Source: Burkholderiaceae bacterium
Lineage (GTDB): Bacteria; Pseudomonadota; Gammaproteobacteria; Burkholderiales; Burkholderiaceae_C
Assembly: GCA_016790175.1 (NCBI GenBank)
Contig: JAEUPI010000094.1
Span: 20,967-84,966, forward strand
Length of the DNA: 64,000 nucleotides
Direction of reading: 5' to 3'
The position numbers were made by a program, and so were the translations under genes. Shown here in pieces: positions 18,363 to 59,434 of the stretch. Under the pieces are notes generated by a model. It ran no database searches and was not told the origin of the DNA. It saw nothing but the letters and a program-made list of their open reading frames with translations. Positions within the stretch are counted from its first letter, which is position 1; each line of letters opens with the position of its first letter.

Positions 18363-18376
18363 GGAAGCGCGCGCGC

Positions 18377-23581: not shown

Positions 23582-23661
23582 GCAGCGATGCTCGCATGCG
23601 ACGCAAGCGCTTGTGTCGCGTCAAAATCCTGCCGGCCGTGAACGGGCCCACTGTGGGCTTG

Positions 23662-24111
23662 ATGAACATGAAGCACGCGCAAGCGCCGAACGAGCAGCCC
23701 GCGCCAAGCGAGCTGCCGCTGGTCTATGCCTGCTCGGGCTGCTCCAGCGCGGCGCAGCTCGCCAATCACCTGGCGGTGCGCCTGGACCGCGAAGGCGTGG
23801 CCGAGATGTCGTGCATAGCCGGCGTCGGCGGCAACGTGCGCAGCCTGGTGCGCAAGGCGCAGGCGGCGGCGGCAGCGGGGCGCCGCATCGTCGCCATCGA
23901 CGGCTGCGCACTGGCCTGCTGCGCCTGTGCACTGGCCTTGCGCGGCGTGACGGCCGACTGGCATCTGCAGCTCGCGCAGCACGGCGTGCGCAAGCGCTAC
24001 CGCACCGATTTCGATCCGAGCGAGGCGGCGCGCCTGCTGGCCGAGTTGCGCGACGCGCTTCCGAGTGCGGCATATCTGACGATGAGCGGCAGCACCCGGG
24101 CGCGTCGATGA
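23662..24111 (+). CDS. DGC-domain putative zinc-binding protein
   Basis: LVYACSGCSSAAQLAN...CIAGVGG...IVAIDGCALAC pattern. Confidence 0.7.
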   Translation: MNMKHAQAPNEQPAPSELPLVYACSGCSSAAQLANHLAVRLDREGVAEMSCIAGVGGNVRSLVRKAQAAAAAGRRIVAIDGCALACCACALALRGVTADWHLQLAQHGVRKRYRTDFDPSEAARLLAELRDALPSAAYLTMSGSTRARR

Positions 24112-26336
24112 CGCTCCCGGACCAGTTCGGCAAGTACGAGATCCGCCGCGTCATCGGCCGCGGTGCGATGGGTGTCGTCTACGAGGGTTTCGACCCGGTG
24201 ATCCGGCGCGCGGTCGCGATCAAGGCCGTTCGGCTCGATTCGAGCAGCGCCGAACTGGTGGCCGAGACGCTGGCGCGCGCGCGGCGCGAGGCGCAGGCGG
24301 CCGGGCGGCTCAACCATGTCGGCATCGTCGCCGTCTACGACTACGGCGAGGAGGTCGGCGAGCAGGGCGAACGCCGGCCCTTCATCGCGATGGAGCTGGT
24401 CGACGGGCGCGACCTGAGGTCGCTGCTCGAATCGGGCCACCGCTTCGACCCCGCGCAGGCCGCCGCGCTGATGACGGCCGTCCTGGCGGCACTGCAGCAC
24501 GCGCACGAACGCGGTGTCGTACACCGTGACATCAAGCCCGGCAACCTGCTGCTGCTCGGCGATGGCAGCGTCAAGATCACCGACTTCGGCGTCGCCCACC
24601 TCGAAGGCTCGGACCTGACGATGACCGGCGCGATGATCGGCACGCCGCAGTACATGGCGCCCGAACAACTGCTCGGCCAGACCATCGACGGCCGCGCCGA
24701 CCTGTTCGCCTGCGGCGCCATCCTCTACGAGCTGCTCGCCGGCCGCAAGGCGTTCAGCGGCAGCTACGCCAGCGTGGTCCAGAAGCTGCTCAACGAAGAC
24801 CCCGAGCCGCCTTCGCGGATCATGCCCGGGCTGGCGCCCGGCTGGGATTCGGTGTTGCGGCGCGCGCTCGCCAAGGACCGGGCCGAACGCTTCCAGAGCG
24901 CGGCCGAGTTCGCGGCTGCGATCCGGCAAGTGCCGCTGCCCACCACAGCCTTGCCCGACGACGACGCGACGGTGATTCTGCCGCGGCGGCACGCCGGGCC
25001 CACCGACCCGCGCACCGCGAAGACGTTGCCGGCCGCGCTGGCGGCGACGGTGCCGCCGGTGTCACTGGCGCATCCGGGCAAACCGCGCCGCTGGCCCGGG
25101 CTCGCCGCCGGGCTGGCCGTGGCCGCCGTTGTCGCGGCCGGCGGCTACGCCCTCTGGCCGCGTGAGCGGGCCGGACCGCCCGTGGTGACCAAGCCGCTGG
25201 GCGATCCGGCCCATGCCGAGCCGCAAACACCGCCACCGGTTGCGGCGCCGCCCGCGCCGGTCGCGGAGTCCATCGCGCCGCCGCCGCCACACCCCCCGAC
25301 TCCGCTCGACGAATGGCAGCGTCGCTGGGCCGAGCTCGACCCGCCGGGCGCCGCGAACGGCCTTGCCGACGGCCTGACGCTGCTGCTCGACCTGCGCGCA
25401 GCGAAGGACAAGGCGCTGGTGGCCGAGTTCGAACAGCTCTCGCGGCCGGCCGGCAACCCGGGCGCATTGGCGTTCGGCACCGCCGACGGCCGCGTCCGTT
25501 GGGCCTGGAGCTTGGCCACTGGCGGCGATGCGACCGCCGAGCGCAGCGCCTGCGCGAAGCTCGCGCTCGCACCATGCAGCGTCGTGATGAGCGACGGGCG
25601 TTTCCAGCCACCGGCCTTCCGGAAGTGGTCGCGGTCGCTCGGCAGCCGCAGCGTCGCCGAGGTCCGGGCTGCGCTGCTGCGCGCGCTGAACGCCGAACTG
25701 CCGGCGATGCGAACACGCTTGGCCGAAGCGAAGGCCCCGGCCCCGCCACCACCCGCCGCGCCGCCGGTGGCGACGCCGGTGCCCGCAACGCCGGTGCCGG
25801 AGGCGCCACGCGCGGCGTCGACACCGCCGGCGGCAGCGCCTGCACCGCCGGCATCACGCGCCGCGGCGACACCGCCGCCGGCATCGCGTGCCGCGCCATC
25901 GCCACCGTCAGCGCCACCGCGCTGGACCGACGAGCCGGTGCAGGCGCTGCGCGGCGAGTTCAGCCCGCAGACGTTGCGCGGCGCGCTCGCCGTGCTGCTC
26001 GACGCCCGCAGCGCCGACGACCTGGACACGCTCGAACACTTCGAGACCGCGATGAAGCGGCTGCCCTACCACAGCGCGCTCGCATTCGGCGAGCGCGGCG
26101 GGCAGATCTTTTATGCCTATGTTCGCCAGCGCAGGAGTGTCGACTGGGCCGGCGAGGAGGCGCTCGACCTCTGCCGCAACGTCACCGGCAGCTACTGCAA
26201 CCTGGTGATGGCCAGCGGCAGTTTTCGGGCCGACTCCTTCGTGTCGTTCGCCAACCGGCTCGGCCAGGCACCGCAGGGCAGCGTCCGCCAGGCCCTGCTC
26301 GGCACTATGCGCAGAAACCTCGAGCGCGGCATCTGA
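24108..26336 (+). CDS. Membrane Ser/Thr protein kinase with two tandem Cys-containing extracytoplasmic repeats
   Basis: ATGA overlap with the DGC gene. Hanks kinase motifs GRGAMGVVY, AIK, HRDIKPGN, DFG, APE; Pro-rich linker; TM WPGLAAGLAVAAVVAAGGYALW. Two ~130-aa repeats follow (ALAFGTADGRVRWAWS...CAKLALAPCSVVM and ALAFGERGGQIFYAYV...CRNVTGSYCNLVM), DUF4189-like by pattern. Confidence 0.85.
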   Translation: MTLPDQFGKYEIRRVIGRGAMGVVYEGFDPVIRRAVAIKAVRLDSSSAELVAETLARARREAQAAGRLNHVGIVAVYDYGEEVGEQGERRPFIAMELVDGRDLRSLLESGHRFDPAQAAALMTAVLAALQHAHERGVVHRDIKPGNLLLLGDGSVKITDFGVAHLEGSDLTMTGAMIGTPQYMAPEQLLGQTIDGRADLFACGAILYELLAGRKAFSGSYASVVQKLLNEDPEPPSRIMPGLAPGWDSVLRRALAKDRAERFQSAAEFAAAIRQVPLPTTALPDDDATVILPRRHAGPTDPRTAKTLPAALAATVPPVSLAHPGKPRRWPGLAAGLAVAAVVAAGGYALWPRERAGPPVVTKPLGDPAHAEPQTPPPVAAPPAPVAESIAPPPPHPPTPLDEWQRRWAELDPPGAANGLADGLTLLLDLRAAKDKALVAEFEQLSRPAGNPGALAFGTADGRVRWAWSLATGGDATAERSACAKLALAPCSVVMSDGRFQPPAFRKWSRSLGSRSVAEVRAALLRALNAELPAMRTRLAEAKAPAPPPPAAPPVATPVPATPVPEAPRAASTPPAAAPAPPASRAAATPPPASRAAPSPPSAPPRWTDEPVQALRGEFSPQTLRGALAVLLDARSADDLDTLEHFETAMKRLPYHSALAFGERGGQIFYAYVRQRRSVDWAGEEALDLCRNVTGSYCNLVMASGSFRADSFVSFANRLGQAPQGSVRQALLGTMRRNLERGI

Positions 26337-30544: not shown

Positions 30545-32362
30545 TCAGCGCAGGCGCGCCAGGGTGTCGCTGATCGCCTGCCGGGCAAGCCCCGCGTCCG
30601 TGGCCGCAGGCAGGTGCAGGTCGCTGGGCTGCGGCCTGAAATGCCAGGCGATCTTGTCGCGGATCTTGTCGGTCAACGCGTCCAGGTTGGCCAGCGGATC
30701 GACCAGATCCTTCCACACCGACAGCAGCCGTGTCAGCGTCTCGGCACGGAATGCGCGTGTGCCGGTGTCCAGGGTACCGGCCAAGCGCGGCGTGACGAGC
30801 ACGATCGCGGCGTCGCGGCTCTGGGTCTTCTGGCGTTCGTTGAACAGCAGGTTGCCGATGGGAATGTCGCCGACCACGGGCACCTTCGACGTCCAGCCCA
30901 CGTTCACCGCCTCGTAAAGGCCCGACAGGATCAGCGTCTTGCCGAACTCGACCTCTGCCGTGGCGCCGACGGTCTGCTTAAAGGTCGTCACCGACTCGGT
31001 GAACGTGCCGCTCGACGTGGGTACGAAGAACGAGCGCACGGTGTCGACGCGGAACTTCGTGCGTTCGCCGCTGATCTCGAGCGGCGTCAGCTTCACCGAC
31101 GTGCCGACGTCGATCGTCTGCAGTGCGCCGGTGTTGATGCCGCTGACCGCGACGCTCAAGGTGCGGCCGATGAAGAACTCGGACTGCTGGCCGAGCATGG
31201 CCACCAGCGACGGGCGTACGACGACGTCGTAGAAGTCGTCGTGGGTGTTGAACAGGTTCAGGCTGTAGGTGATCTGCGGCACCGTCAGCGCGGTGGTGAT
31301 CACCCGGCTGAAGGCATCGGCCGATCCCGTGCCGCGGCGCCGCTCGGTCTTGTTGTCGCCGCCGAACTGCAGCTTCAGGCCGTCCAGCAGGTTGATGCCG
31401 ACGCTGTGCTTCGTGGTGTCCTGACTCAGCAGCAGCGTGACCTCGACCATGACCTGCTGCGGCGAGTCGCCCGGCGCCCCGGCGTTGGCGGCCGGCGCTC
31501 GAGGCTGCGGTGCCGGGGTGTCCTGGGCCGGTGGGGCCGGTTGAGGGGTTTGGGCAAGTTGACCCGAATCGTCTGCGGCCGCCTCCGCTGCGATTCGCGT
31601 CGGCCGATCATCCGCCGCCGCCAGCACGGCAGTTCGCAGCAGCTGCGCGAAACGCGGCGTGTGGGCAGACAGCCCGCTCGACGGCAGCGCATTGGCGCGC
31701 TCGATCACCGCGGCCAGCCGCTGGCGGTCGCCCTGAGCCGCCGCCACAAAGGCCGACGCCCTAAGCATCAGCGGATCCTGCGGCGCCAGCGCGAGGGCCT
31801 TATCGGTGGCCACCCGCGCCACGCCGAGATCGCCGGCGTAGTAGGCCGAGGCGGCCAGCCCTGCGAACGCCTGCGGCGCGTCGGGTCTGTCCAGGATCGC
31901 CCACGCGAACTCCTCGGCTGCAGCTGGGTAGTTTTTCTGATCGAACCGCGCCAGCCCTGCGTAATAGTGCGACCAGAAGTAGCCCGGCGCGAACTTCACC
32001 GCCGCGTCGTAGCCCACCTGCGCCAGCTCCGCCGATTGCTGCGAGGCGTCGGCCAGCTGATAGTTGAGACCATTGAGCAGATGCAGGTACCCGTTCTGCG
32101 GCTCGGCCCTCAGCGCTGCCGTCAGCAGCGGGCGCGCGGCCTCCGGCTTGCCGTCGCGCAGCGCCGCGGCGATGTCGTCGCGCTGCGCGTGCCCGTGAGC
32201 CTGCGCCGCGCCTTGTGCGGCCGGCTGCGTCGCACAGCCTCCCAGGGCGAGCGGCAGGCTCAGCGCGACGATCGCCGCAACCGACAACGGCGTCAACCGC
32301 CAGCGGGTGTGCGTCGGCGCGCGAGGCGATGACGAGCGCGCGTCGTGCATGACAGTCTTCAT
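30545..32362 (-). CDS. Lipoprotein with N-terminal TPR domain fused to a secretin (T2SS/T3SS/T4P-type) C-domain
   Basis: Start MKTVMHD with RBS ggagga; lipobox LALGGC; ~200 aa of TPR-like repeats; Pro-rich linker. Secretin core runs QVMVEVTLLLSQD...GINLL... to the hallmark SKVPVVGDIPIGNLLFNERQ...IVLVTPRL. No N0/N1-type domains are recognisable. Confidence 0.8.
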   Translation of the reverse strand: MKTVMHDARSSSPRAPTHTRWRLTPLSVAAIVALSLPLALGGCATQPAAQGAAQAHGHAQRDDIAAALRDGKPEAARPLLTAALRAEPQNGYLHLLNGLNYQLADASQQSAELAQVGYDAAVKFAPGYFWSHYYAGLARFDQKNYPAAAEEFAWAILDRPDAPQAFAGLAASAYYAGDLGVARVATDKALALAPQDPLMLRASAFVAAAQGDRQRLAAVIERANALPSSGLSAHTPRFAQLLRTAVLAAADDRPTRIAAEAAADDSGQLAQTPQPAPPAQDTPAPQPRAPAANAGAPGDSPQQVMVEVTLLLSQDTTKHSVGINLLDGLKLQFGGDNKTERRRGTGSADAFSRVITTALTVPQITYSLNLFNTHDDFYDVVVRPSLVAMLGQQSEFFIGRTLSVAVSGINTGALQTIDVGTSVKLTPLEISGERTKFRVDTVRSFFVPTSSGTFTESVTTFKQTVGATAEVEFGKTLILSGLYEAVNVGWTSKVPVVGDIPIGNLLFNERQKTQSRDAAIVLVTPRLAGTLDTGTRAFRAETLTRLLSVWKDLVDPLANLDALTDKIRDKIAWHFRPQPSDLHLPAATDAGLARQAISDTLARLR

Positions 32363-32442: not shown

Positions 32443-33753
32443 CTATGGAATACGTATCCGGATCTGGCACTGCGTGAAGGCGGGCCCCGACTCCGCGCCG
32501 CGCGCGCCGACCCAGAACTTCAGCGTGTGCGCCACCGGCGACGTTCGGCTGGCGCACGCAGTGCCCGCCGAGGTGTTGCCGCCCACTGCGCGAAATGGGA
32601 TCTGATGGAAGGTGCCGGTGGCCGGCGCCGTGAAGTTGCCCAGCCCGCTTGCGCTGCTGTAGATGACACTGGGCGAGCCGGAGGCCACGCACAGACGATC
32701 CTGCACCTCGAACTCGATGCGTTGCCCACCCGCCGGTGGCTGCTGCGACAGCCGGAGCTCGCACTGGAAGTTGTCGTTCGCGTTGACCGTGTCGCCGGTC
32801 GTCTGGTTGCGGCAGACGCAGGCCTGCGTGAACGCGTTCGCGGCCGGCGGCGGGTTGATCACCAGCGTCAGCGTGTCGGACCGGTTCGGGTTGGGCGTGG
32901 CGACGGTCAGCGTCGATGTGCGCGTGGCCCTCGTGCCGCGGATATTGGCGACGTCGCCGGTGAAGCGCATCACCATGTCTTGCCACGGCGGAACTCGCCG
33001 GATGTTGCCGCCGCTGACGAGCCTCACGTGCGCCGGCGACGTGACGGTGTAGCCGAACTCGCCCCAGATATCGATCTCACGCGGAAGCTTGCCAGCGACA
33101 CGCGTTCGAAACTCCAGCTCGCAATTGCTCGTGTCGCTGTTGGCGCCCGGTGGCAGCGTGATGGTCATGCGCGTGTTGTTGAGGTCCTGCACCACCGTGC
33201 CGATGTTTTTCGTCAGGCACTGCGACGGCCTCTGCACCAGTCCCGAACTTTCGAACGTCCACACCGGCGTGGAGAACGGCACCGCACGCATCTGCAGGCG
33301 CGACTCGTCGCCGAGGGGCATGCGGAATCGCAGCGAGCGCTGGCGCGTCGTCCCCGCCTCGGCGGGCGAGTCGACCTCGACCTCCACAGAGCCCTTGAGG
33401 ATCCTGCAGCCGCGCATCAGGTTCTCGGCCCCGTTGTGGGCCCGGATGATCCGCGCCGTGACGAGCGAATCGACGTTGCTGTCGTCAACTGTGACGCGGA
33501 CCGCCGGGCTGACGTCGATACCGTCGCCCCAGACTTCGAAGCGCATGTTGTTGCCGGCCTGCACCCGCAGGTCCTTGCCGTCGCCGATCGTGTCGACCTT
33601 GTCGCAAGTGCCGACCGGGGTGACGAATTCGACCGCCGCCCGGCTCGTAGCCGGCAACAGCGCGGCCGAGGCCGCCAGCCCGGCGACGATCATGGCGACG
33701 CGCGGCGACCATGACGAACGGCTCGCGGCGGATGGATGACGACACGCAGTCAT
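32443..33753 (-). CDS. Exported Cys-rich protein of unknown function (436 aa), first structural gene of the secretin locus
   Basis: ATG at 33753 with RBS aggaga; signal peptide ...VAMIVAGLAASAALLPATSRA; more than 10 Cys; no motif I recognise. Confidence 0.7.
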   Translation of the reverse strand: MTACRHPSAASRSSWSPRVAMIVAGLAASAALLPATSRAAVEFVTPVGTCDKVDTIGDGKDLRVQAGNNMRFEVWGDGIDVSPAVRVTVDDSNVDSLVTARIIRAHNGAENLMRGCRILKGSVEVEVDSPAEAGTTRQRSLRFRMPLGDESRLQMRAVPFSTPVWTFESSGLVQRPSQCLTKNIGTVVQDLNNTRMTITLPPGANSDTSNCELEFRTRVAGKLPREIDIWGEFGYTVTSPAHVRLVSGGNIRRVPPWQDMVMRFTGDVANIRGTRATRTSTLTVATPNPNRSDTLTLVINPPPAANAFTQACVCRNQTTGDTVNANDNFQCELRLSQQPPAGGQRIEFEVQDRLCVASGSPSVIYSSASGLGNFTAPATGTFHQIPFRAVGGNTSAGTACASRTSPVAHTLKFWVGARGAESGPAFTQCQIRIRIP

Positions 33754-33839: not shown

Positions 33840-33874
33840 ACGCTATCGGTGAGGCGTTTGTCGAGCGTTTGCCG
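33840..33874 (-). promoter_or_regulatory. Promoter with tandem 11-bp direct repeats (site 1): CGGCAAACGCT-CGACAAACGCC-N7-TAGCGT
   Basis: Repeats at 33853-33874, -10-like hexamer at 33840-33845, 87 nt upstream of the ATG at 33753. The same architecture occurs at 34163-34198 and 60796-60830. Confidence 0.6.
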
Positions 33875-33915
33875 GCGGCGGCACACGCGTGCGCACGTGA
33901 TCGGCCGAGCGCGAT

Positions 33916-34134
33916 TCAGCATGACTCCGGCCTCGTCGAAGGCGGCGCCGCAGGTTGCGGCGCGTCGTCGGCGGCGGGCGGCGGCGCCTCTGCGCTGGCC
34001 TCGCGCAGGAACTCGCCGAGCTGCGCCGGCTCGTCGAACAGCCGCGGCTCGTCCTGGTCCACGCTGCGCACGGCAGCTCGGAACTGGCTCAGGTGCTGCC
34101 ACACCCGCACGAGAAACAGCCGAGGTTCGCTCAT
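33916..34134 (-). CDS. Small cytoplasmic protein (72 aa), LFLVRVW...FRAAVRSVD type
   Basis: RBS ggag + ATG at 34134; no signal peptide; own repeat-type promoter. Colinear weak similarity to the 81-aa ORF at 43340-43585. Confidence 0.6.
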   Translation of the reverse strand: MSEPRLFLVRVWQHLSQFRAAVRSVDQDEPRLFDEPAQLGEFLREASAEAPPPAADDAPQPAAPPSTRPESC

Positions 34135-34162
34135 GGCCCGCTCCGCAATCGCGTTGCGGCGG

Positions 34163-34198
34163 ACCTTAGTGCAGGGGGCGTTTGCTCAGCGTTTGTCG
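34163..34198 (-). promoter_or_regulatory. Promoter with tandem 11-bp direct repeats (site 2): CGACAAACGCT-GAGCAAACGCC-N7/8-CTAAGGT
   Basis: Repeats at 34177-34198; -10-like TAAGGT at 34163-34168; ~30 nt upstream of the ATG at 34134. Lies in the divergent region shared with the hemolysin-III gene. Confidence 0.55.
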
Positions 34199-34329
34199 GC
34201 AGGCGACGGCTCGGCGACGGCCCGGGCGAACGCCAGCCGATCCATCACGGCGGTCAGTGTGAGCGGCTCGTGCCCGCCCCGGGCGTGCAACGCCCGCCAC
34301 AGCGTGTGCGGCACGGATAGACTGCCATC

Positions 34330-34968
34330 GTGATGCGAGAGCAATCCGTCGGCGAGGAGATCGCCAACGCCCTGAGCCACGGCATCGGCTGCTTGCTGGC
34401 CATTGCGTCGCTGCCGATCCTCGTCCACCAGGCGGCCACACGCGGCAGTGCAGCCGCCGTCGTCGGTGCCAGCCTGTTCGCCGGCACGGGAATCGTCCTG
34501 TACTTCGTCTCGGCGCTGTACCACGCGCTGCCGGCGGGTGCGGCCAAGCGCTGGCTGAACCGGCTGGACCACGCGGTCATCTTCCTGTTCATCGCGGGCA
34601 GCTACATGCCGTTCGTGCTGGGGGTGCTGATCGGTGCCTGGGGCTGGGCGCTGTTCGGCGTCGTCTGGGGCGCCGCTTCATTGGGCGTCGTCGCGAAGCT
34701 GTTCGACCGCCTGCGCCATCCGCTGTGGTCGACCGCGTTGTACGTCGCGATGGGCTGGGTCGCGCTCGTCGCCGCAGTGCCGCTGGTCGAGCGCATGTCG
34801 TGGTCGGGGCTGGCCTGGCTGGTGGCCGGCGGCGTGTCGTATACGGTCGGCGCGATCGTGTTCCTGTTCGATTCGAAGCTGCGCTACGCGCACTTCGCGT
34901 GGCATGTCCTCGTGATCGGCGGAAGCACCTGCCACTTCTTCGCCGCCCTGTGGCACGCCGGCGGCTGA
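34330..34968 (+). CDS. Hemolysin III / PAQR-family channel protein
   Basis: EEIANALSHGIG..., seven TM helices, conserved HFAWHVLVIGGSTCHF. Confidence 0.85.
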   Translation: MMREQSVGEEIANALSHGIGCLLAIASLPILVHQAATRGSAAAVVGASLFAGTGIVLYFVSALYHALPAGAAKRWLNRLDHAVIFLFIAGSYMPFVLGVLIGAWGWALFGVVWGAASLGVVAKLFDRLRHPLWSTALYVAMGWVALVAAVPLVERMSWSGLAWLVAGGVSYTVGAIVFLFDSKLRYAHFAWHVLVIGGSTCHFFAALWHAGG

Positions 34969-35653: not shown

Positions 35654-36712
35654 ATGGACAAGGCGAAGTCGCAGCAGTTCATGCTCAAGGTGGTCGGCGA
35701 CGTCGGCACGGTGCTGGCGGCTGGCGCGGCACTCGTCGGTGACCGCTCGGGTCTGTTCCGCGCGATGGCCGGCGCCGGTGCGTTGAGCGCACAGGTCATC
35801 GCCGAGCGCAGCGACGTGCAGCCGCGCTACGTCGAAGAATGGCTCGCGGTGATGACCGGTGCCGGTTACGTCGAGCACGACGCCGCCCATGACACCTACA
35901 CGCTGCCCGACGAACACGCCCTCTTCCTCACCAACCCGGCGACCGAGTACTACCTCGGTGGGCTGTTCCACGGCTTGCCGGGGTTGATGTCGTCGCTGCC
36001 GCGCGTGGCGCAGGCCTACCAGACCGGCGAAGGCGTGCACTTCGCCGACTTTGGCGCCGAGATGCCACTCGCGCTCGAGGCGATGAACCGGCCGGTCTAC
36101 GAGACCCGCCTGGTACGCGACTGGCTGCCCGCGCTGCCTGCCGCGCTCGAGCGCCTGCGCGCCGGCGGCCGCGCGCTCGATGTCGGCTGCGGCACCGGCG
36201 TCGTGCCGATCACGCTGGCCAAGGCCTTCGAGCGCGCGACGATCGCCGGGCTCGACCTCGATGCTCGCTCGATCGCCATCGCGCGCGAGCGCGCCCGCGA
36301 AGCCGGCGTCGGCGAGCGCGTGCAATTCCTGCAGACTCCCGTCGAGCAGTTGCCGCGCGACGAGCGCTGGGATCTGATCACGACCTTCGACGTCATCCAC
36401 GACCTGCCCGATCCGCACGGCACGCTGGTACTCATCCGCGCCGCGCTGGCCGAAGGCGGCACCTACCTGATGGTCGAACCGAAGGTGGCCGACCGGCTCG
36501 AGGACAACGTCGCCAACCCGTTCGCGCGCATGCTGTACGGCATGAGCTGCCTGCACTGCGTGCCGCAGTCGCTGGCGCAGGGTGGCCCCGGGCTCGGCGC
36601 GTGCTGGGGCGAGTCGCGCGCCCGCGCGCTGGCGCGGGCCGCGGGGTTCGCCGAGTTCCGCCGTCTCGAGGTGCGCAGCCCGGCGATGTCGTTCTATGCG
36701 CTGAGCGGGTGA
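35654..36712 (+). CDS. Class I SAM-dependent methyltransferase with N-terminal winged-helix-like domain
   Basis: RBS aggag + ATG at 35654; motif I ALDVGCGTGV; post-I IAGLDLD; motif II/III region WDLITTFDVIHD. Confidence 0.8.
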   Translation: MDKAKSQQFMLKVVGDVGTVLAAGAALVGDRSGLFRAMAGAGALSAQVIAERSDVQPRYVEEWLAVMTGAGYVEHDAAHDTYTLPDEHALFLTNPATEYYLGGLFHGLPGLMSSLPRVAQAYQTGEGVHFADFGAEMPLALEAMNRPVYETRLVRDWLPALPAALERLRAGGRALDVGCGTGVVPITLAKAFERATIAGLDLDARSIAIARERAREAGVGERVQFLQTPVEQLPRDERWDLITTFDVIHDLPDPHGTLVLIRAALAEGGTYLMVEPKVADRLEDNVANPFARMLYGMSCLHCVPQSLAQGGPGLGACWGESRARALARAAGFAEFRRLEVRSPAMSFYALSG

Positions 36713-37057
36713 GGGCCGATCGACGCCTGTAGGCACCCGCGTTTGCGCGGCCCGTACCATCTTCGGGTCTTCTCGCGCGCGGTCGGCGCGGCGCGGCGGG
36801 CGGTACCCGCCTGGGACTCACACTGGGTCGGTCGACGCCTGCGGCGCCGACTACGCTGCGTTGCCCGGTCTTTCGGCCCCGCTGCCGAACTCGCTGCGTG
36901 ATCGGCCGCGGCAGCGGACCGACCGTATTGAGAACTCTCCCCAGGGCACGGCCACAGGTTCTGGCCGCCATGGGTGGGCATCTTCCCCGGGCGCGCCGCG
37001 GCAGGCCCTGCGGCTGCGCGCTGCGAACGACGCCCGGCGCCGATACCGCGGAAACCG

Positions 37058-38602
37058 TCAGCGGCGCAGCTGCAGACGGCACGATTGCACCGCGCGTCGA
37101 ACGTGCCAAGCTTCGCAGCGTCGCACGCCGGACTCGTCGGCGCAGACGAAGTGCAGCGAGCCGCCGCGCGACATGCATCCCACCGCGGCCAGCTCGCGTT
37201 GCACGCCCGCTGGCGACGTCAGCGACTGCGGCGCCGGAGCGGCCACACCGGCCGCCGCGGCAGCGGTGACCGAGCGCTCGCCGGCAACCGGACCGGCCGC
37301 GGTCGGCGAGCGCTGTGGCACGGCCCCCGGCAGCAGATCGACCTTCGACGGTGGCCGCGGATGCGCCGGCTGATTCGCCGCCGAGACGCTGTAGACGCAG
37401 CTTTCGCCGACGCTCGCCATGAACGGCTTGCACGTCGCCATCGCGCTGGCGCTCGGGCAGCCGAGCCCCGGACAGACGCTGCCCACCAGCTTGGCGTCGC
37501 GGAAGGCCTTGACGAAGGCCGCCCTGTTGCCCTGCCAGAACACCTGGTTGCACCAGGTGTAGTTGCCGATCAGCTTCAGCTCGGCCGCCTTGGCCGTGTG
37601 CGCGTTGACCCATCGCGTCACGTGCGAGTAGCCGAGCGTCACGAAGCGCTGGTTGCAGTACAGCGGCACCGACGTGGCAGGCAGCTTCTTGCTGTCGGAT
37701 TGGTAGCGCGCCCAGGCGTTGGCCGCGGCCAGTGCCACCGAGCCGGCGCCGTTGAAGTTGACGCGCTCCTTGGTCAGCTGCGGCAGCACCTGCTGGACCA
37801 CGTGTGCCGACCACTGTGCATCGAGCGCCTTGTCGTACACCTCGACCGCCTTGCCGATCTCGGCATCGGCGTGGCCGCCTGCCTTGGCCTTGGCCTTGAT
37901 CGAATCGACCAGCTTCTGCAGCGCCCACAGGTCCTCCGACTCGATCGCCGTCAGCCCCTCCGGCAGCAGGCGCGGCTTGAAGTACTTCTCGTACACCTGC
38001 TGCGATTTCGGCTTCGGCGGCGGCCCGCTGCTGTCGCAGCCACCGAACAGCTTGCCGGCCGTGGCGCAGTAGCCGTCCTTCGCGACGTTGTAGGCGCCTT
38101 CGCCGAGATCGGCGAAGAACTCCGCCACCGCCTTGCCGCCCGAGTAGACATCCTTGGCGAACTCGATCAGCTCGGCGATCAGCGCGCAGGCGTCGGCGCC
38201 GCCGAGCAGCACCTGCACCACCGCGCAAGTGGCCGCGGCACCGAGGTGATAGGCCACGCCCCAGTAGTCCTTGTCCTTGTAGGCGATGTAGGCATCGACC
38301 GCCTGCCAGAACGACGACGGCACGCCGGCTTCGTTCGACGCCTTCTTGCCGAGCGGCGTGTCGTGGAAGCTGTCGACGCAGACCACCGGATCGGTCTTCC
38401 CCGAGGCGAGGCAATCGAAGAGACCCTTCGACGCCGCGAGATCGGCTGCCGATACCGGCAGCGAATTCGGCGGCGCGGCCTTGTCGATCTTCTGATAGGT
38501 ACTGATGAAGTCGTCGAGCGTGTCGGCGCGTGCCGGGCCGGGTGCGAGCCAGGCCAGCGGCAGCAGCAGGACCAGCGCCACCATCGACCCGAACCGCCGC
38601 AT
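37058..38602 (-). CDS. Exported Cys-rich protein of unknown function (514 aa), last gene of the CsgG-like operon
   Basis: ATG at 38602 with RBS; signal peptide MRRFGSMVALVLLLPLAWLAPGPARA; about 20 Cys; no recognisable domain. Confidence 0.7.
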   Translation of the reverse strand: MRRFGSMVALVLLLPLAWLAPGPARADTLDDFISTYQKIDKAAPPNSLPVSAADLAASKGLFDCLASGKTDPVVCVDSFHDTPLGKKASNEAGVPSSFWQAVDAYIAYKDKDYWGVAYHLGAAATCAVVQVLLGGADACALIAELIEFAKDVYSGGKAVAEFFADLGEGAYNVAKDGYCATAGKLFGGCDSSGPPPKPKSQQVYEKYFKPRLLPEGLTAIESEDLWALQKLVDSIKAKAKAGGHADAEIGKAVEVYDKALDAQWSAHVVQQVLPQLTKERVNFNGAGSVALAAANAWARYQSDSKKLPATSVPLYCNQRFVTLGYSHVTRWVNAHTAKAAELKLIGNYTWCNQVFWQGNRAAFVKAFRDAKLVGSVCPGLGCPSASAMATCKPFMASVGESCVYSVSAANQPAHPRPPSKVDLLPGAVPQRSPTAAGPVAGERSVTAAAAAGVAAPAPQSLTSPAGVQRELAAVGCMSRGGSLHFVCADESGVRRCEAWHVRRAVQSCRLQLRR

Positions 38603-38676
38603 CGTCGTGCCCGGAGGTGCCACGCGGTTCGGTGTGCAACCTCCGGGCTGCGAGCACCGTTCGGAGCGGTCCGTGC

Positions 38677-39333
38677 TCATGGCCGGCTCCCCGCCGGCGT
38701 GGCGCGCTGCCCGGTGGCCGCCGCCAGCTCGCGCTTGATTGCGCCGACCGTGACGCGCCGGCCCGAGGGCGACTCGAGCACGGTGTCGTCGGGCCGTGAC
38801 AGCACCGCGCGCCAGTCGGTGCGGGCGTCGACGCGCAGTACCCGTCCCGCCGCCGGCTGGCCGGGCGCGGTCACGGCGCGGCCGAGCCGGGCTTCGACGC
38901 GCGGCATCACGAAGCGCAACTGCTCGGCCGTCACCGTGCGGCCGGACGGCAGCTGGAACACCTCGGTGCCGGGCCGGCGCAGCGCGTCGTTCAGGTCCTC
39001 GCCGCTGCGCAGCGGCGTGCCGCTGCGCCCCGGCGGCGCGACCAGCCCGGCCGGTGCCGCACGCTCGCCGCCGCGCATGCGGCTCGCGGCGGCGTCCAGG
39101 CGGCGCAGATCGCCGACACGCATGCGACGGTTCGGCGCGAACTCGACGATGTCACTGTCGGCGCGGCCGGCAAGCGAGCGCGCGGTCATGGCCGGCGTGT
39201 AGGGGATGACGGCCCTCGATGCCGCGGTGGCGCGTGCCGGCGCCTCGGCAGCCGCGAGCGCCGGCGCGCCGGGCGCGAGCATCGCCGCGGCCGTAACGGC
39301 CGTCCGGGCCGCGATCAGGAAGCGTGCGTCCAT
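38677..39333 (-). CDS. Exported protein (218 aa) with three short internal repeats
   Basis: Signal peptide MDARFLIAARTAVTAAAMLAPGAPALA. Repeats FAPNRRMRVGDLRRL / QLPSGRTVTAEQLRF / ESPSGRRVTVGAIKREL. Confidence 0.65.
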   Translation of the reverse strand: MDARFLIAARTAVTAAAMLAPGAPALAAAEAPARATAASRAVIPYTPAMTARSLAGRADSDIVEFAPNRRMRVGDLRRLDAAASRMRGGERAAPAGLVAPPGRSGTPLRSGEDLNDALRRPGTEVFQLPSGRTVTAEQLRFVMPRVEARLGRAVTAPGQPAAGRVLRVDARTDWRAVLSRPDDTVLESPSGRRVTVGAIKRELAAATGQRATPAGSRP

Positions 39334-39364
39334 GTCGAGGTCCTCTCTCGAATCCGAATCCTGC

Positions 39365-40609
39365 TCAGCGTGAACCCGAAGGCATGTGCAGCCGACCGGC
39401 GGCTGCCGGCGCGGTGCCGTCCTGCGCCGGGCTGAAGCGCAGGTTGTCGGTGGCTGCGGCCTGCGGCGGCGGCAGCGGCGCACCACCGCACAGTCCCGCG
39501 ACGCTGACCGTCAGCATGAATTCGTTGTTGGCCTTGCTGGCTTCCTTCAGCTGGTTCAGCGGGTCCAGGCGCAGCCGCAGCTTGTTGACGCCCGGCCGCA
39601 GACCGATCGTGTCGACGCGGCTCACCGCGGCCCCGGCGGCGATCGCCGGCGTCTGCGCCACCTGTGCGCCGGGGCTGCCTTCGACCGTCCACTGGCGGTC
39701 CGATGCGGGGCTGCCGGCCGCGCCGAGGTTGCGGACCTCGTGTTCGAACGCGACCTGGCACACGCCGTTGGCGGTCGTGCGCGCGTCGGTGTCGGGCAAT
39801 GCGAGCATGGCGCCCGACGCGGCGCTGTGCTTGCCGGCGACGACGACGCGCGCGCCGCTGGCCAGATCGGGCAGCGCCGCCCCGATCGCAGGCAGGGTCG
39901 CGAGCCGTCCCCTGCCCGGCGCCGTCATGTCCGCACCGGGCTGCGCCGTCGCGTCTGGCGTGCTCTGCCCCGCTGCGCCCGTCTTGCCCCGGGGCAAGGG
40001 CGGCGTCTGGACCTGCTGCGCCGCCATCCGGCCGGACGGTGACACCGGCTTATTCATCGCTGCCAGCTTGTTCGCCTCGGCTCCGGTCGTGGCCCTCGAC
40101 AGCAGCGGGCGATTCTTCTCGGCGGGTACCGAGAATCCCGACCAATCGGTGAGGTTCTTGAATTCGAGCCGCACGCACGGGTCGTCTTGGACGACGGGGT
40201 CACCCGTGCACTTGAACTCCGAGCGCAAGGTGCCCGAATGTTTCTTGCCCGGATCGGTCAACTTCACCAGCTCTTCGAGCCGGCTCGCGCCCGAATGCCA
40301 GGTAACCCGAGCCTCGGCCCACAGCGCCGACTCGCCTGTATTGGGCGCGGCCACGCCTGCCTTGACGTGGTCGACCCAGATCTTGCAGATGCCGTCGAAC
40401 CAGTAGCTGCGCGTGCGGGCGGCGGCATCGTCGGTCACCTGCTTCAGCTTGAAGCTGCCGCAGTCGGCCATGTGCTTGACGAGGTGCGTCTTGTCGACGG
40501 TCGTGGTCGTGCTCGAAAAGCCGAGCGCCGACACCGCCTGCGGCAGGCACAGCGCCGCCGGCAGCAGCGCCGCGCCGGTAACGCGCCGCGACAGAAGAGC
40601 GATCGTCAT
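39365..40609 (-). CDS. Exported protein (414 aa): Cys-containing N-domain, Pro/Ala linker, CARDB-like C-terminal beta-sandwich
   Basis: ATGA overlap with the upstream gene; signal peptide. C-terminal ...CQVAFEHEVRNLGAAGSPAS...GAAVSRVDTIGLRPGVNKLRLRLDPLNQLKEASKANNEF resembles CARDB. Confidence 0.65.
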   Translation of the reverse strand: MTIALLSRRVTGAALLPAALCLPQAVSALGFSSTTTTVDKTHLVKHMADCGSFKLKQVTDDAAARTRSYWFDGICKIWVDHVKAGVAAPNTGESALWAEARVTWHSGASRLEELVKLTDPGKKHSGTLRSEFKCTGDPVVQDDPCVRLEFKNLTDWSGFSVPAEKNRPLLSRATTGAEANKLAAMNKPVSPSGRMAAQQVQTPPLPRGKTGAAGQSTPDATAQPGADMTAPGRGRLATLPAIGAALPDLASGARVVVAGKHSAASGAMLALPDTDARTTANGVCQVAFEHEVRNLGAAGSPASDRQWTVEGSPGAQVAQTPAIAAGAAVSRVDTIGLRPGVNKLRLRLDPLNQLKEASKANNEFMLTVSVAGLCGGAPLPPPQAAATDNLRFSPAQDGTAPAAAGRLHMPSGSR

Positions 40610-41238
40610 GGCAACACCTTCTTGGCGTTCAGCTCGACCTGAGTGGCATATGCCGCGAGCTGCTGGCTCAGAGCCCGGGCCTCGGCGGCGGTGGCCGCCG
40701 CCGTCTTCTGGAACTCCTGCAGCGAGAAGCCGATCTTGGCGTTGCCGGCGCCTGCGTTGGGCAGCCTGACGCCGCCGGCGGAACCTCCGCCCAGACCCAG
40801 AACCGGCAGACTCGTGCTCTGGTAGCTCTGCAGGCAGTGTTTCAGCAGCTTGTCGGAACACTGCGCCACCGTGTCGTTGGCGGTGCAGCCGGCCTTGGTC
40901 TGATCCTGCACGCTGTACGACTTGTTCGCGCATTCCTGCGCCATGCCCGGAACGGCTTTGACCATCGACTCGAAGGCCTTCGCGTCGCCGGAGAACTTGT
41001 TGAAGTCTTTCGCGAGCGTGTCGAGCCCAAGAGCCGGAATGACCAGGCGCGGCACGTTGCCGGGCGACAGGCGCAAGTCGCCTTTCAGCGGGGCCGCCAC
41101 GGCCTGGCGTGCCGGCCCGGCAGGCGCAGGCGTGGGCGTGTTGCGTGCGTTGTCGGCCGCGCTCGCGGCGGCCGAGGCCAACGACGTCACGATGGCGGCG
41201 GCCCGCAGTGCCGCGCAGAAGGGACTGGTGTGCTGCAT
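40606..41238 (-). CDS. Exported protein of unknown function (210 aa), four-Cys helical region
   Basis: Signal peptide MQHTSPFCAALRAAAIVTSLASAAASA; ...AQECANKSY...KAGCTANDTVAQCSDKLLKHC... Confidence 0.6.
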   Translation of the reverse strand: MQHTSPFCAALRAAAIVTSLASAAASAADNARNTPTPAPAGPARQAVAAPLKGDLRLSPGNVPRLVIPALGLDTLAKDFNKFSGDAKAFESMVKAVPGMAQECANKSYSVQDQTKAGCTANDTVAQCSDKLLKHCLQSYQSTSLPVLGLGGGSAGGVRLPNAGAGNAKIGFSLQEFQKTAAATAAEARALSQQLAAYATQVELNAKKVLP

Positions 41239-41250
41239 CGCGTCCTCCGT

Positions 41251-41997
41251 TCAGGGCTCGAACCGTCTGGCCAGCTGCAGCACCGCCTCGTCGATCACCG
41301 CGCGCAGCGCCGAGTCGATGCCTTCGCTATGGCGCTGCTGCGCCTGGACCTCGGGCGTGTAGGGCGACGACTTGCCGCGCTGCGCGAGGATCGTGCCGAT
41401 CAGGCTGCTCGTGCCGCTGACGCCGGCCTCGTCGGAGCGGATCGACCTGCGTACGCTGACCGCATCGACGATGTCGCCGTTGCCGGCGTCGACGATGCGC
41501 ACGTCGATCGCGATCGTGTCGCGGTTGCTGCTGCCGCCGAGCTGCGCACCGGCAACGCCGACGCCGGCCGAGCGCTGCCGCTCACCGGCGTTGGTCTCCG
41601 ACAGCGTGCCCTCGAAGACATACTGCGCGCCGCGCAGCGTCCGCGCCGCCGCCTTGCCCGACGCCAGGCCGCTTAGCTGCAGCTGCTTCTCGCGCATCAC
41701 GCCGTCGTTCAAGCGCGCGCGCTCGACGACGCGGAACTGTCCGCTCTGCACGAGCGCGGTCTTGAACATCTCGGTCGCCGATCGGGCGCTGACACCCGGC
41801 AGCTCGGTGCGGACCTCGTAGAGGGTCACCGCGACGCGCTCGCCGGCCTTGCGCGGCAGCTTCTTCAGCGCCTGTGCGCCGACGGTCGCATCGGCGCGCG
41901 CCGGCTGCGCGGCCAGCGCACCCATTGTCTGACTGCAGGCGGCGAGCACGACGCCGATGGCGGCGGCGAGCGCCAGGCGGAGGCAGGGATGCTTCAT
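41251..41997 (-). CDS. CsgG-family outer-membrane lipoprotein (curli-type secretion channel fold)
   Basis: Lipobox VLAAC; ERVAVTLYEV...SATEMFKTALVQSGQFRVVERARLNDGVMREKQL; GAQYVFEGTLSE...; DTIAIDVRIVDAGNGDIVDAVSV. Colinear with the CsgG family. Confidence 0.8.
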   Translation of the reverse strand: MKHPCLRLALAAAIGVVLAACSQTMGALAAQPARADATVGAQALKKLPRKAGERVAVTLYEVRTELPGVSARSATEMFKTALVQSGQFRVVERARLNDGVMREKQLQLSGLASGKAAARTLRGAQYVFEGTLSETNAGERQRSAGVGVAGAQLGGSSNRDTIAIDVRIVDAGNGDIVDAVSVRRSIRSDEAGVSGTSSLIGTILAQRGKSSPYTPEVQAQQRHSEGIDSALRAVIDEAVLQLARRFEP

Positions 41998-42026
41998 CGT
42001 GGTGACTCCTCGTGGACGACAGTGCC

Positions 42027-42734
42027 TCAGTGCGTGCGCCAGGGCCAGGGCTGACCGAAGACCGATCGGCATGCGGCGTCGAACAGCGCCGGCGCGGCCG
42101 CATCGGCGACGCCCGCGGCCAGCAGCGCCGCGCCGATCAGGCCGAGCACGGCGCCGGCCAGGCGCGTCGTCAGATCCTGCACCGCATGCATCGCGCGCCG
42201 CGCGAGGTCGCCGCGCCGGTCGGCGAAGCCGATCAGCAGCCCCAGCGCGTTCAGCACAAACCACAAGCCGAGCGGAATCAGCGCGAACGCCGGCCGCGCG
42301 AGCAGCGCGTCGTGCAACTGCGCCGGCGTGACGCCGAACACCCACGCCAGCACCAGCGCGAACCCGCACAGCCCGAGCCAGGCGAGCGCGACCCCGAACG
42401 GCACCGCCGCCGCGCCCTCGTAGATGACGAAGCGCGCCTCGCGCCGCATGAAGCTGCGCGCGAAGAACATCAAGCGTCGTTCGGCAACCGCCAGCACGCC
42501 GACGGCGACCGCGATCGCAGCAAACCCGGCCATGCCGAGCGCCAGCCACGCCGGGCGCGCCAGGTGAAACCCGGTCAGCGCGACGGCCGTCGCCGCCAGC
42601 GGCGCGACCAGGTACAGCGCGACGATGCGGCGTTCGACCCGCGCCGCTTCGGCGGCCGACACCGGATACCGGCCGCCGCTGAAGGGCAACGGCGGATCGA
42701 CCGGGCCGGCGTCGGCGAGCGCGTCGCGGTTCAT
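42027..42734 (-). CDS. Polytopic inner-membrane protein of unknown function (~235 aa)
   Basis: Five to six hydrophobic helices. ATG at 42734 preferred over the GTG at 42743. Confidence 0.6.
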   Translation of the reverse strand: MNRDALADAGPVDPPLPFSGGRYPVSAAEAARVERRIVALYLVAPLAATAVALTGFHLARPAWLALGMAGFAAIAVAVGVLAVAERRLMFFARSFMRREARFVIYEGAAAVPFGVALAWLGLCGFALVLAWVFGVTPAQLHDALLARPAFALIPLGLWFVLNALGLLIGFADRRGDLARRAMHAVQDLTTRLAGAVLGLIGAALLAAGVADAAAPALFDAACRSVFGQPWPWRTH

Positions 42735-42750
42735 CGTGGGCACCGGTTGC

Positions 42751-43311
42751 TCAGTACTTGACGTCGTCGCGTTTGACGAAGGCGCCGTCCCTGCCGCTCA
42801 ACGTCACCGACGACATGCCCTTGTCGGTCATGACCGACACCGACCAGAACAGCTGTGGCTTGCCGAGCGCCTGGTTGCCGACCACCAGGCCCAGGCCGAG
42901 GTTCTTCGCCGACTTGTCGAGCTTCAGCCCGGCCTTGGCGGCGGCCGCGACCGCCTGGTCGCTGTCGACGAAATCGCTGCCGATCGCGTCGACCGAGGTG
43001 TTGCGCACATCGGCCTCGACCTCGACCTTGCCGCCGTCGCGCACGGTGACGATGGCGCTCTTCTTCGCGCCCGGCGAATAGAAGGTCACGAGCCAGCTCG
43101 CCGCGCGGCCGTCGCCGCCGCCGCGCAGCGTCGACACGTGGGTCGCCACCGCGTCGCCGCGCCACTTGGTGGCGGCGGGTGCCGCCTGCGCGAGCGCTGC
43201 CCTGGCGGTCTGCGCCAGCGCGGCGGTGGCGGTCAGTGCCAGTGCGATGCCGGCCAGGCCGACCAGCGTGGCCGCGGCGCCGAAGCGTCGATGGATCGTT
43301 GCGAGGGTCAT
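42751..43311 (-). CDS. Exported protein (186 aa), PepSY-like pattern (weak)
   Basis: Signal peptide ...LVGLAGIALALTATAALAQT; ...IGSDFVDSDQAVAAAAKAGL... helix typical of PepSY-type domains. Confidence 0.55.
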   Translation of the reverse strand: MTLATIHRRFGAAATLVGLAGIALALTATAALAQTARAALAQAAPAATKWRGDAVATHVSTLRGGGDGRAASWLVTFYSPGAKKSAIVTVRDGGKVEVEADVRNTSVDAIGSDFVDSDQAVAAAAKAGLKLDKSAKNLGLGLVVGNQALGKPQLFWSVSVMTDKGMSSVTLSGRDGAFVKRDDVKY

Positions 43312-43339
43312 GGCGATGGCTCCTGAACGTGAACAGTTC

Positions 43340-43585
43340 CTAGCGGAGGTCCCGCGGCGGTCGCGGCGAGGGCGCGGCCAGATCGACCAGCCAGCGGATC
43401 AGTTGATGCAGGCTGGCGACTTCGCGCGGCCGGTCGTGACCTTCGATCACGGCCTGCCAGCGCTCGCCGCGCCGCTGCAGCTCGATGTGGAACAGTGCGG
43501 CCTCGCGGCCAGCAGGCGCGGGCATGACGCCGCCATCGCGCCGCGCGAGTTCTCCGTCGTTCATGGCTTGGCCCCCGCGGTGCAC
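43340..43585 (-). CDS. Small cytoplasmic protein (81 aa; possibly 68 aa from 43546), LFHIELQ...WQAVIEGHD type
   Basis: No signal peptide. Colinear with the 72-aa ORF at 33916-34134 (LF-x-[VI]-x-[VL]-x6-[FW]-x-A-x-[VI]-x3-D ... L..[FW]L). Confidence 0.5.
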   Translation of the reverse strand: MHRGGQAMNDGELARRDGGVMPAPAGREAALFHIELQRRGERWQAVIEGHDRPREVASLHQLIRWLVDLAAPSPRPPRDLR

Positions 43586-44295
43586 TGCTGAAGCGCAATG
43601 GCGGGCGCGCCGAGCACCGTGCCGAGCATGAGCGACGCTTTCGGTGCCAGCGGCGCCTGCAGCGTGTGCACACCACCGGGCGGTGTCGGCGCCGCGGTGT
43701 GCGGCTGCACCGACCAGACGATGCGCAACGCCGCCGGCAGCGGCGCGCTGCCGGTATGGGTCGCCGTAAACTCGTACTCGCGCTTCATCGTCGCGAAACT
43801 GCCGCTGCCCACCGCCTTCATGCCCTTGGCCGCGAGGCCGCAGGCGAGCGTCACGTCGGGCAGCGCCTTCGGGACCCTGCCTGCATCCGCCGTCGCACGC
43901 GCTGCGGGCATCGCCTTCGTTGCCGTGCCGTCGCGCCCCGGCGACGCGGTCGAGTCCGGCGCGACGGCCCGCAGGCCGGTGGCCGACGGCGGCGACATCC
44001 TGCGTGCGCCACCGGCGCTGCCTTGCTGCTCATAGGTCTTCATGCACTGCTCGATGTACTGCTGCACCTTCTGCTTGAAGGCGTCGGTGCCGGCGCCGGG
44101 CGAGGTCGGCGGGTATTTCGTGGCCGCCTGGTACGAGCACATCGTGTACGGCGAAGTCGGCGGCTTGACGCAGCCGCCGAGCGCGCCGGGCACCTGTCCC
44201 GGCGGGCAGGCCGCGTACACGGCGGCCCCGGTGCCGGCGAGCACGGCGGCCTGCGCGCGCGGTGCGACCGGTCGGAACGCGAATCGCCTTGGCAT
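43561..44295 (-). CDS. Exported Pro/Cys-containing protein of unknown function (244 aa), first gene after the SARP regulator
   Basis: RBS agagga + ATG at 44295; N-terminal MPRRFAFRPVAPRAQAAVLAGTGAAVYAA leader; 5 Cys. Confidence 0.6.
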   Translation of the reverse strand: MPRRFAFRPVAPRAQAAVLAGTGAAVYAACPPGQVPGALGGCVKPPTSPYTMCSYQAATKYPPTSPGAGTDAFKQKVQQYIEQCMKTYEQQGSAGGARRMSPPSATGLRAVAPDSTASPGRDGTATKAMPAARATADAGRVPKALPDVTLACGLAAKGMKAVGSGSFATMKREYEFTATHTGSAPLPAALRIVWSVQPHTAAPTPPGGVHTLQAPLAPKASLMLGTVLGAPAIALQQCTAGAKP

Positions 44296-44400
44296 GGACG
44301 GGTCCTCTGTCGTTGCCGGGTCGCTTCGGTCATCCGAAGCCTGGACGCGACGATAGGGCGCGCGGCGTTACCGCCGCGTCACAACCGCCCGATGCCGGCG

Positions 44401-48318: not shown

Positions 48319-48322
48319 CGTC

Positions 48323-59424: not shown

Positions 59425-59434
59425 GGAACCGCTC

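Follow-up and report, generated by a model that had tools for sequence, protein, structure and literature searches.

Which regulator acts at three copies of a promoter-like module, two of them at a secretin locus and the third in front of a gene 27 kb away, in the genome of a Burkholderiaceae bacterium (assembly GCA_016790175.1)? The copies were noticed in a first-pass annotation of 64,000 nt of contig JAEUPI010000094.1 (positions 20,967 to 84,966; hereafter the window), which took them for a conserved promoter module under activator control, with two 11-bp direct repeats followed by a -10 element, and assigned them to a SARP-type regulator of 905 amino acids (aa) encoded within the window. 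Our analysis supports the module but points to a different regulator. We consider it probable that the sites are SARP-type activator-dependent promoters that serve an orphan secretin cluster, and that their activator is most likely the AfsR-like protein Reg2, which is encoded immediately beyond the right end of the window.

Reading of the minus strand confirmed all three sites (Table 1). A search of the window with the 22-nt repeat pattern SRRCAAACGCYSRRCAAACGCC, allowing up to two mismatches, returned 3 matches versus 0.00 expected from 100 shuffles, and the full module including the -10 hexamer gave 3 matches versus 0.03 expected. No weaker boxes emerged in the window, where relaxing the pattern to three mismatches added matches at chance level only. 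The DNA flanking sites 1, 2 and 3 is unrelated among the three copies. The start codons that had been assigned to the downstream genes (33753, 34134 and 60729) proved correct; they are located 86, 28 and 66 nt downstream of the respective -10 hexamers, each with a plausible ribosome-binding site. Transcription starts are predicted near 33833, 34156 and 60789 for sites 1, 2 and 3, respectively. No terminator was predicted at the sites, a consensus scanner gave no canonical sigma-70 promoter there, and no known RNA family scored above threshold anywhere in the window.

That no other full copy exists is true within the window, a fourth one being located 17-34 nt past its right end. The region to the right was read from four independent assemblies with an identical 736-aa gene (L120-L123), and in L120 it contains a perfect box at 9939-9956, equivalent to about 64017-64034 in window coordinates. 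This site 4 consists of CAAACGCTGAGCAAACGC, 8 nt and the hexamer TACGGT. It is located 45 nt upstream of the ATG of the 736-aa gene, and the box overlaps the stop codon of the gene for Reg2 (…ADKR-stop; L120 9937-9948).

Related genomes were examined by scanning a collection of one genome per species for the repeats only (RCAAACGCYSRRCAAACGCC), with the -10 kept out of the pattern. The scan returned at least 119 loci, mostly chance matches in unrelated phyla. Among the matches listed, a group of metagenome-assembled genomes (MAGs) from the Burkholderiales (Ideonella, Rubrivivax, Casimicrobiaceae and other Burkholderiaceae) contained one to three copies per locus, each followed by CTAnnGT. A TAnnnT hexamer at offset 8 or 9 was present in 18 of the 19 family matches listed versus 1 of the 109 in unrelated genomes (Fisher p = 9e-20); since the scan pattern held the repeats only, this enrichment is an independent confirmation. 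Every site is intergenic or at the end of an open reading frame (ORF) and is oriented toward a gene. The matches in related genomes are confined to a single gene cluster, always upstream of genes, which is not the distribution of the random or dispersed mobile repeat that the first-pass annotation had named as the finding that would speak against its proposal.

Pooling the window, its extension in L120 and 14 related Burkholderiales MAG loci yielded at least 37 unique sites in 16 loci, to which three further loci add another 8 sites. The consensus of the 37 sites is cG-R-CAAACGC-T-s-R-R-CAAACGC-C. The two heptamers carry 1.8-2.0 bits per position, are invariant save for three single-base exceptions and stay constant across genera while the neighbouring DNA diverges. 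The flanks and the spacer between the heptamers carry 0.1-0.7 bits, and the 7-8 nt between the second heptamer and the hexamer are unconstrained (0.2-0.7 bits). The hexamer that had been proposed as the -10 is present, but TAGCRT does not hold as its consensus; it reads T-A-n-n-G-T instead, with G at position 5 in 31 of 35 sites.

As judged from these sequences, the module shows every tested feature of a SARP box. In SARP boxes the direct repeats are heptamers with 4-bp spacers between them, and the 3' one is located 8 bp upstream of the -10 (PMC7040171). Heptameric direct repeats with 4-bp spacers and an 11-bp period were found at 3 of 3 sites in the window and in the pooled set of 37, in which 22 sites have the second heptamer 8 bp from the hexamer and 13 have it 9 bp away. 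The -35 element is poor or absent at all 35 promoters, the best match to TTGACA at a spacing of 16-18 bp being 1-2 of 6 positions, and the promoters are accordingly predicted from their sequence to depend on an activator. A SARP gene in or beside the regulated cluster, another mark of such boxes, was found in 15 loci.

The SARP gene in question encodes Reg2 or a relative of it. Reg2 is a BTAD-NB-ARC/nSTAND-TPR protein of 1007 aa, and its gene is immediately upstream of, and co-directional with, the 736-aa gene. Searches against Pfam recognised the BTAD domain (E = 2e-8) and gave matches to NB-ARC, nSTAND1, AAA_16, TPR_12 and TPR_MalT, and Reg2 has the NOD/NB-ARC ATPase plus TPR extension of large SARPs. 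A profile of the N-termini of the Reg2 family, searched against the PDB, matched AfsR (8k60, 8jke, 8hvr) at E = 7e-31 and EmbR (2fez) at E = 8e-29. The match extends over both SARP domains, winged helix and BTAD, and into the start of the NOD. Judged by its domains and by profile homology, Reg2 belongs to the large SARPs. Its hosts are Burkholderiales MAGs and its predicted targets a secretin and exported proteins, outside the actinobacterial, secondary-metabolite context that is usual for SARPs, if not strictly defining.

In each of the 15 loci (L120, L124, L125, L126, L129, L130, L133, L134, L135, L136, L071, L100, L017, L076 and L014), an ortholog or paralog of Reg2 with 46-79% identity is located 0.1-7 kb from boxes. 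Full-length orthologs of 59-76% identity are encoded in L124, L125, L126, L134 and L136, and more distant, likewise full-length Reg2-like proteins of 46-57% identity in L130, L133, L135, L014, L017 and L076. A reciprocal search of metagenomes from Reg2 returned 7 loci. All three of those with at least 5 kb of downstream sequence (L129, L130 and L133) carry the boxes as well as the target genes; the remaining four contigs stop at the gene or no more than 600 bp from it. Every Reg2-like protein retains the recognition helix ARRNLRHV[VI]F[KR]AR, paralleling the invariant heptamer; in Reg2, H76 and K80 align with T88 and R92 of AfsR.

No intact Reg2-like gene was found in the window, which contains a 35-codon remnant of the 3' end of such a gene only. 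The remnant is located between an HlyIII-family gene (34330-34968, plus strand) and site 2, whose first repeat is made up of the last codons of the remnant. Since this Reg2-like remnant is at site 2, a second copy of the regulator was apparently lost from the secretin locus. The closest relative of the secretin locus in the window, L130 (HlyIII 93%, secretin 90%), retains a Reg2-like gene adjoining the secretin operon. The lineage of the window seems to have lost that copy and to rely now on the remaining Reg2 in trans. A 935-aa ORF (23529-26336, plus strand) was considered as a Reg2-like gene and rejected, being a Ser/Thr protein kinase; it is located 4 kb past the 3' end of the secretin operon and 7 kb from site 1. 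Beside the Reg2 ortholog of L135, and divergent from it, is a kinase gene (16948-18540) with 37% identity in the kinase domain. A kinase near the regulator recalls the phosphorylation of AfsR by AfsK.

Several points weigh against Reg2 as the activator. Reg2 is itself outside the window, its position being taken from the four independent assemblies that share the 736-aa gene. Its Pfam match to Trans_reg_C is below threshold (E = 0.0018), a single-sequence phmmer search of its N-terminus against the PDB gave no match, and the alignment used for the N-terminal profile also included the 905-aa regulator and more distant BTAD proteins. Roughly one site in three has a spacer of 9 bp instead of 8. 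Finally, the geometry alone cannot name the binder because PhoB/OmpR-type response regulators use the same repeat geometry; the first-pass annotation had rightly likened the repeats to the sites of both SARP and OmpR-type activators.

In the pho box, two direct repeats of 11 bp (7 conserved and 4 variable bp) replace the sigma-70 -35 element and are bound by tandem winged-helix domains. The boxes could thus be the sites of another winged-helix activator, for example a response regulator of the PhoB/OmpR family encoded elsewhere, with only an indirect linkage to Reg2. We regard this as unlikely. The pho box resembles the present sites in having two direct repeats of 11 bp in place of the -35, but differs in its sequence and in its distance to the -10, which at 8 bp follows the SARP rule here, and its binder is a phosphorylated response regulator, of which none is linked to the boxes. 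In the neighbourhoods examined there was no conserved gene with Response_reg plus Trans_reg_C domains near the clusters: one such gene is present 10 kb away in L124, at the locus edge, LytTR regulators occur in L126 and L134, and the other loci have none. Such an activator would also leave unexplained the strict linkage of Reg2 to the boxes and the conservation of its helix in step with the heptamer.

Binding by the 905-aa protein, Reg1, alone or with cross-talk from Reg2, was the original proposal, and Reg1 does combine a SARP-like N-terminus with BTAD, AAA_16 and TPR domains at a distance of 10 kb from site 2. We nevertheless find it distinctly unlikely, since it is Reg2 and not Reg1 that co-occurs with the boxes. 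Reg1 shares about 30% identity with the box-linked regulators over the first 290 aa only, and no Reg1 ortholog was found beside boxes in any other locus examined. Its recognition helix (ARRNLRQEIHRLQ) differs at the positions aligned with T88 and R92 of AfsR, which make base contacts (PMC10936776), and the 71-aa DNA-binding segment of Reg2 gave no match to Reg1 at E <= 1e-3. Reg1 also has a candidate repeat of its own. Behind its stop codon, and before the gene at 43561-44295, the minus strand reads GTAACGC-N15-GTGACGC-N4-GTAACGC-N9-TATCGT (44350-44404). This 11-bp-phased GTRACGC repeat, a single instance from which the pattern itself was derived, may be a separate SARP box of Reg1; a search for orthologs of the gene downstream of Reg1 returned the query alone. 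Reg1 heads a run of minus-strand genes (36400-44300) that includes a CsgG-like gene (41251-42549), a CARDB-like gene (39365-40933) and several ORFs without family, and this run may be a second exported or surface-protein cluster under its own SARP.

It is very unlikely that the conserved elements represent the -35 and -10 in a promoter for a sigma factor of the extracytoplasmic function (ECF) type. With AAC inside the heptamers and CGT at the end of several hexamers, the sites superficially resemble ECF promoters, but the distances between heptamer and hexamer are 8-9 or 19-20 bp versus a spacer of 16-17 bp, the hexamers TAAGGT, TATGGT and TAGCAT have no CGT, nothing would account for the 11-bp-phased doubling of the heptamer, and there was no sigma factor gene in any neighbourhood examined. 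A sigma-54 promoter was rejected on spacing and context. The locus has undergone rearrangement, as seen from the regulator remnant upstream of site 2, but the probability is negligible that the module is a mobile, dispersed repeat, the product of a recent duplication or a chance match, given that zero matches are expected by chance, that the flanks of the three copies are unrelated, that the direct repeats have no terminal inverted repeats, and that the sites in related genomes stand upstream of genes in one cluster with heptamers that are invariant across genera.

With Reg2 as the activator, the promoters could work as follows. The two 11-bp direct repeats fill the place of the missing -35 and spacer, ending 8-9 bp before a weak -10 (TAnnGT). 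A side-by-side dimer of the SARP domain of Reg2 (an OmpR-type winged helix plus BTAD) would occupy the two repeats, by analogy with AfsR, and would contact RNA polymerase and region 4 of sigma in lieu of a -35 ("sigma adaptation"), thereby turning the promoter on. The NOD/STAND ATPase and TPR domains may gate activation in response to a signal. The binding, the activation, the transcription starts and the trigger are inferred here.

The most likely regulon, counted over the window and the extension in L120, has site 4 driving the 736-aa gene, probably together with the DsbA-like gene, which we place in the site-4 transcript as a putative operon member; site 3 driving the 161-aa gene; site 2 the 72-aa gene; and site 1 the 436-aa gene and the secretin. 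Site 1 is located between the 72-aa ORF and the 436-aa gene, and the secretin gene, which follows the latter after a gap of 80 nt, is predicted to be co-transcribed behind it. ATG 32362 is the most likely start of the secretin, with a GGAGGA ribosome-binding site and the lipobox LALGGC. Site 3 is in a 322-nt gap between the DsbA-like gene and the 161-aa gene. Related genomes contain homologs of the 72-aa, 436-aa, secretin and 161-aa genes together in one cluster, with boxes preceding the 72-aa, 436-aa and 161-aa genes. The proposed link between the secretin locus and the gene 27 kb away is thereby supported, and the 27-kb separation in the window is secondary because the homologs form one cluster elsewhere. 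In L016, L017 and L065 a homolog of the 72-aa gene is followed by a homolog of the 736-aa gene of the window.

Table 1. Promoter sites, predicted target genes and regulator genes in the window (SARP-box repeats are given in gene orientation).
Feature	Coordinates	Strand	Remarks
Site 1 box	33853-33874	minus	CGGCAAACGCT CGACAAACGCC; heptamers 33871-33865 and 33860-33854
Site 1 -10-like hexamer	33840-33845	minus	TAGCGT, 8 bp past second heptamer, preceded by TCACCGA
Site 2 box	34177-34198	minus	CGACAAACGCT GAGCAAACGCC; heptamers 34195-34189 and 34184-34178
Site 2 -10-like hexamer	34163-34168	minus	TAAGGT, 9 bp past second heptamer, preceded by CCCTGCAC
Site 3 box	60809-60830	minus	CGACAAACGCT CGACAAACGCC; heptamers 60827-60821 and 60816-60810
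Site 3 -10-like hexamer	60796-60801	minus	TAGCAT, 8 bp past second heptamer, preceded by TACGGCC
Secretin	30545-32362	minus	605 aa from ATG 32362; N-terminal TPR region and lipoprotein signal
436-aa protein	32443-33753	minus	Exported, Cys-containing; predicted target of site 1
72-aa protein	33916-34134	minus	Conserved, cytoplasmic; predicted target of site 2
3'-end remnant of Reg2-like gene	34186-34293	minus	Ends …HEPLTLTAVMDRLAFARAVAEPSPADKR-stop; 66% identity to Reg2 residues 973-1007, E = 7e-7
Reg1	44401-47118	minus	905 aa, SARP-type, winged helix-turn-helix (wHTH)-BTAD-AAA_16-TPR; probably not the binder of these boxes
161-aa protein	60244-60729	minus	Exported, Ser/Thr/Gly-rich, 4 conserved Cys; predicted target of site 3
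DsbA-like gene	61052-61702	minus	Between 736-aa gene and site 3
736-aa protein	61762-63972	minus	Weak Big_2 match; predicted target of site 4

The predicted targets other than the secretin are poorly covered by databases. The 72-aa protein had no Pfam or NCBIfam match, and its AlphaFold model, of moderate confidence (pLDDT 68.5), gave nothing better than E = 3 in a Foldseek search against the PDB. Its N-terminal 47 residues are nearly invariant; the tail is variable and predicted with low confidence. In many genomes the ORF reads through the box of the next promoter (L124 10151-10213; L125 10148-10210), the tail P-A-N-A-G/E-Q-T-P being the translation of CCG GCA AAC GCT GRG CAA ACG CC and the stop codon TAG the beginning of the -10 hexamer. 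By this reading the "conserved" tail of the protein is promoter DNA, which corrects the annotation. The 436-aa and 161-aa proteins had no Pfam or NCBIfam match and no PDB profile match at E <= 1. The 161-aa protein is kept at 63-82% identity in 9 genomes, including the low-complexity tail and the 4 Cys. Its gene (L120, about 13245-13730) is absent from the gene calls of L120-L123, which have an 80-aa ORF on the opposite strand instead.

Boxes also occur as divergent, back-to-back pairs that drive divergent operons, which we found in 10 genomes. Measured from one upstream heptamer to the other, the offset is 33 bp (3 x 11) exactly in 7 of the 10 (L014, L071, L124, L125, L126, L129 and L133) and 31, 20 and 16 bp in the remaining three (L083, L100 and L076, respectively), and the sequence between the boxes is not conserved. 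The 33-bp offset suggests a phasing constraint, possibly caused by an oligomeric regulator. A more far-reaching possibility, which we put forward tentatively, is that Reg2 acts as an ATP-driven STAND oligomer on two phased back-to-back boxes, firing both divergent promoters at once and turning on, in Sphaerotilaceae-type Burkholderiales, a hitherto undescribed system for export or a surface structure that is based on a secretin. The Cys-containing 436-aa and the Ser-rich 161-aa proteins would be its substrates and the 72-aa protein an AfsS-like downstream regulator. If true, Actinobacteria would no longer be the only bacteria with a defined SARP regulon, and a SARP regulon would for the first time be tied to protein secretion. 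We found no description in the literature of a SARP linked to a secretin locus.

The product of afsS, the gene beside the gene for AfsR, is 63 aa long, and cluster-situated small SARPs bind heptamers of the TCGAGxx type. The afs box of AfsR comprises two 11-bp repeats, in which contacts are made to the first 8 bp; at the afsS promoter the 3' repeat is 8 bp from the suboptimal -10 CACTGT, and the activity of AfsR is modulated by its NOD and TPR domains (PMC10936776). The system of Streptomyces coelicolor resembles the present one in its large SARP with the order winged helix-BTAD-NOD-TPR, in a 22-bp box of two 11-bp direct repeats with about 8 conserved and 3 free bp each, and in a 3' repeat whose distance to a suboptimal -10 ending in GT (TAnnGT here) is 8 bp, together with a poor or absent -35 (PMC10936776). 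A small-protein gene beside the regulator gene is a direct target there, as the 72-aa gene may be here, an analogy only. In contrast to AfsR, the recognition sequence here is CAAACGC, the host is a Gram-negative member of the Burkholderiales, the targets are a secretin and exported proteins rather than regulators of antibiotic pathways, and the boxes often form divergent pairs offset by 33 bp, with a 9-bp spacer in a third of the sites.

HilA of Salmonella has an OmpR/ToxR-type winged helix and TPRs and activates type III secretion operons that include a secretin. It is similar to Reg2 as a proteobacterial winged-helix activator with C-terminal TPRs that acts through direct repeats on operons for a secretion apparatus, but it has no NOD/STAND ATPase and its box is located further upstream. 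Small SARPs (ActII-ORF4, DnrI, RedD, FdmR1, Aur1PR4 and PapR2) share with the present system the heptameric repeats with 4-bp spacers, the distance of 8 bp to the -10, a regulator gene within the controlled cluster and boxes at several cluster promoters; unlike Reg2, they are 250-350 aa in size, have no NOD or TPR and belong to actinobacterial biosynthetic clusters (PMC7040171). What is unusual here is the combination of a Burkholderiales host, an orphan TPR-lipoprotein secretin with uncharacterised exported targets, the CAAACGC heptamer and the phased divergent pairs.

Double heptamers were also seen outside the Burkholderiales. Five Streptomyces species (L011, L049, L077, L078 and L107) share GCAAACGCTSGGCAAACGCC in conserved, apparently non-coding flanks. 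Neither a -10 at offset 8 or 9 nor a SARP gene within 8 kb was seen at these loci, and they may be unrelated. An unclassified MAG (L046) has four tandem GCAAACGCTCA units.

The DNA between Reg1 and site 3 contains genes for UbiU/UbiV-like U32 peptidases (47299-49285), followed by an anaerobic phenol-type gene set (50758-60028). The latter consists of a XylR-type sigma-54 activator (50758-52485), phenylphosphate synthase-like genes (52866-55856), a UbiD-like gene (55906-57429), a UPF0261 gene (57458-58702) and a UbiX-like gene (59435-60028). The extension in L120 carries genes for the nitrate reductase NapDAGHB.

SARPs are viewed as actinobacterial switches for antibiotic synthesis, and it has been doubted whether proteobacterial look-alikes are true SARPs (PMC7040171). 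The locus described here brings together a betaproteobacterial AfsR-like protein and a textbook SARP box with an invariant recognition sequence and a small, well-delimited regulon. It offers a directly testable case of sigma adaptation with a Gram-negative RNA polymerase, and the pair of recognition helix and heptamer is of use for the DNA-recognition code of SARPs. For annotation, it recovers a missed 161-aa gene and identifies the apparent tail of a 72-aa protein as promoter DNA. For the Burkholderiales themselves, Reg2 and its boxes would provide a regulatory handle to switch on an uncharacterised secretin cluster that is common in members of this order from wastewater and freshwater.

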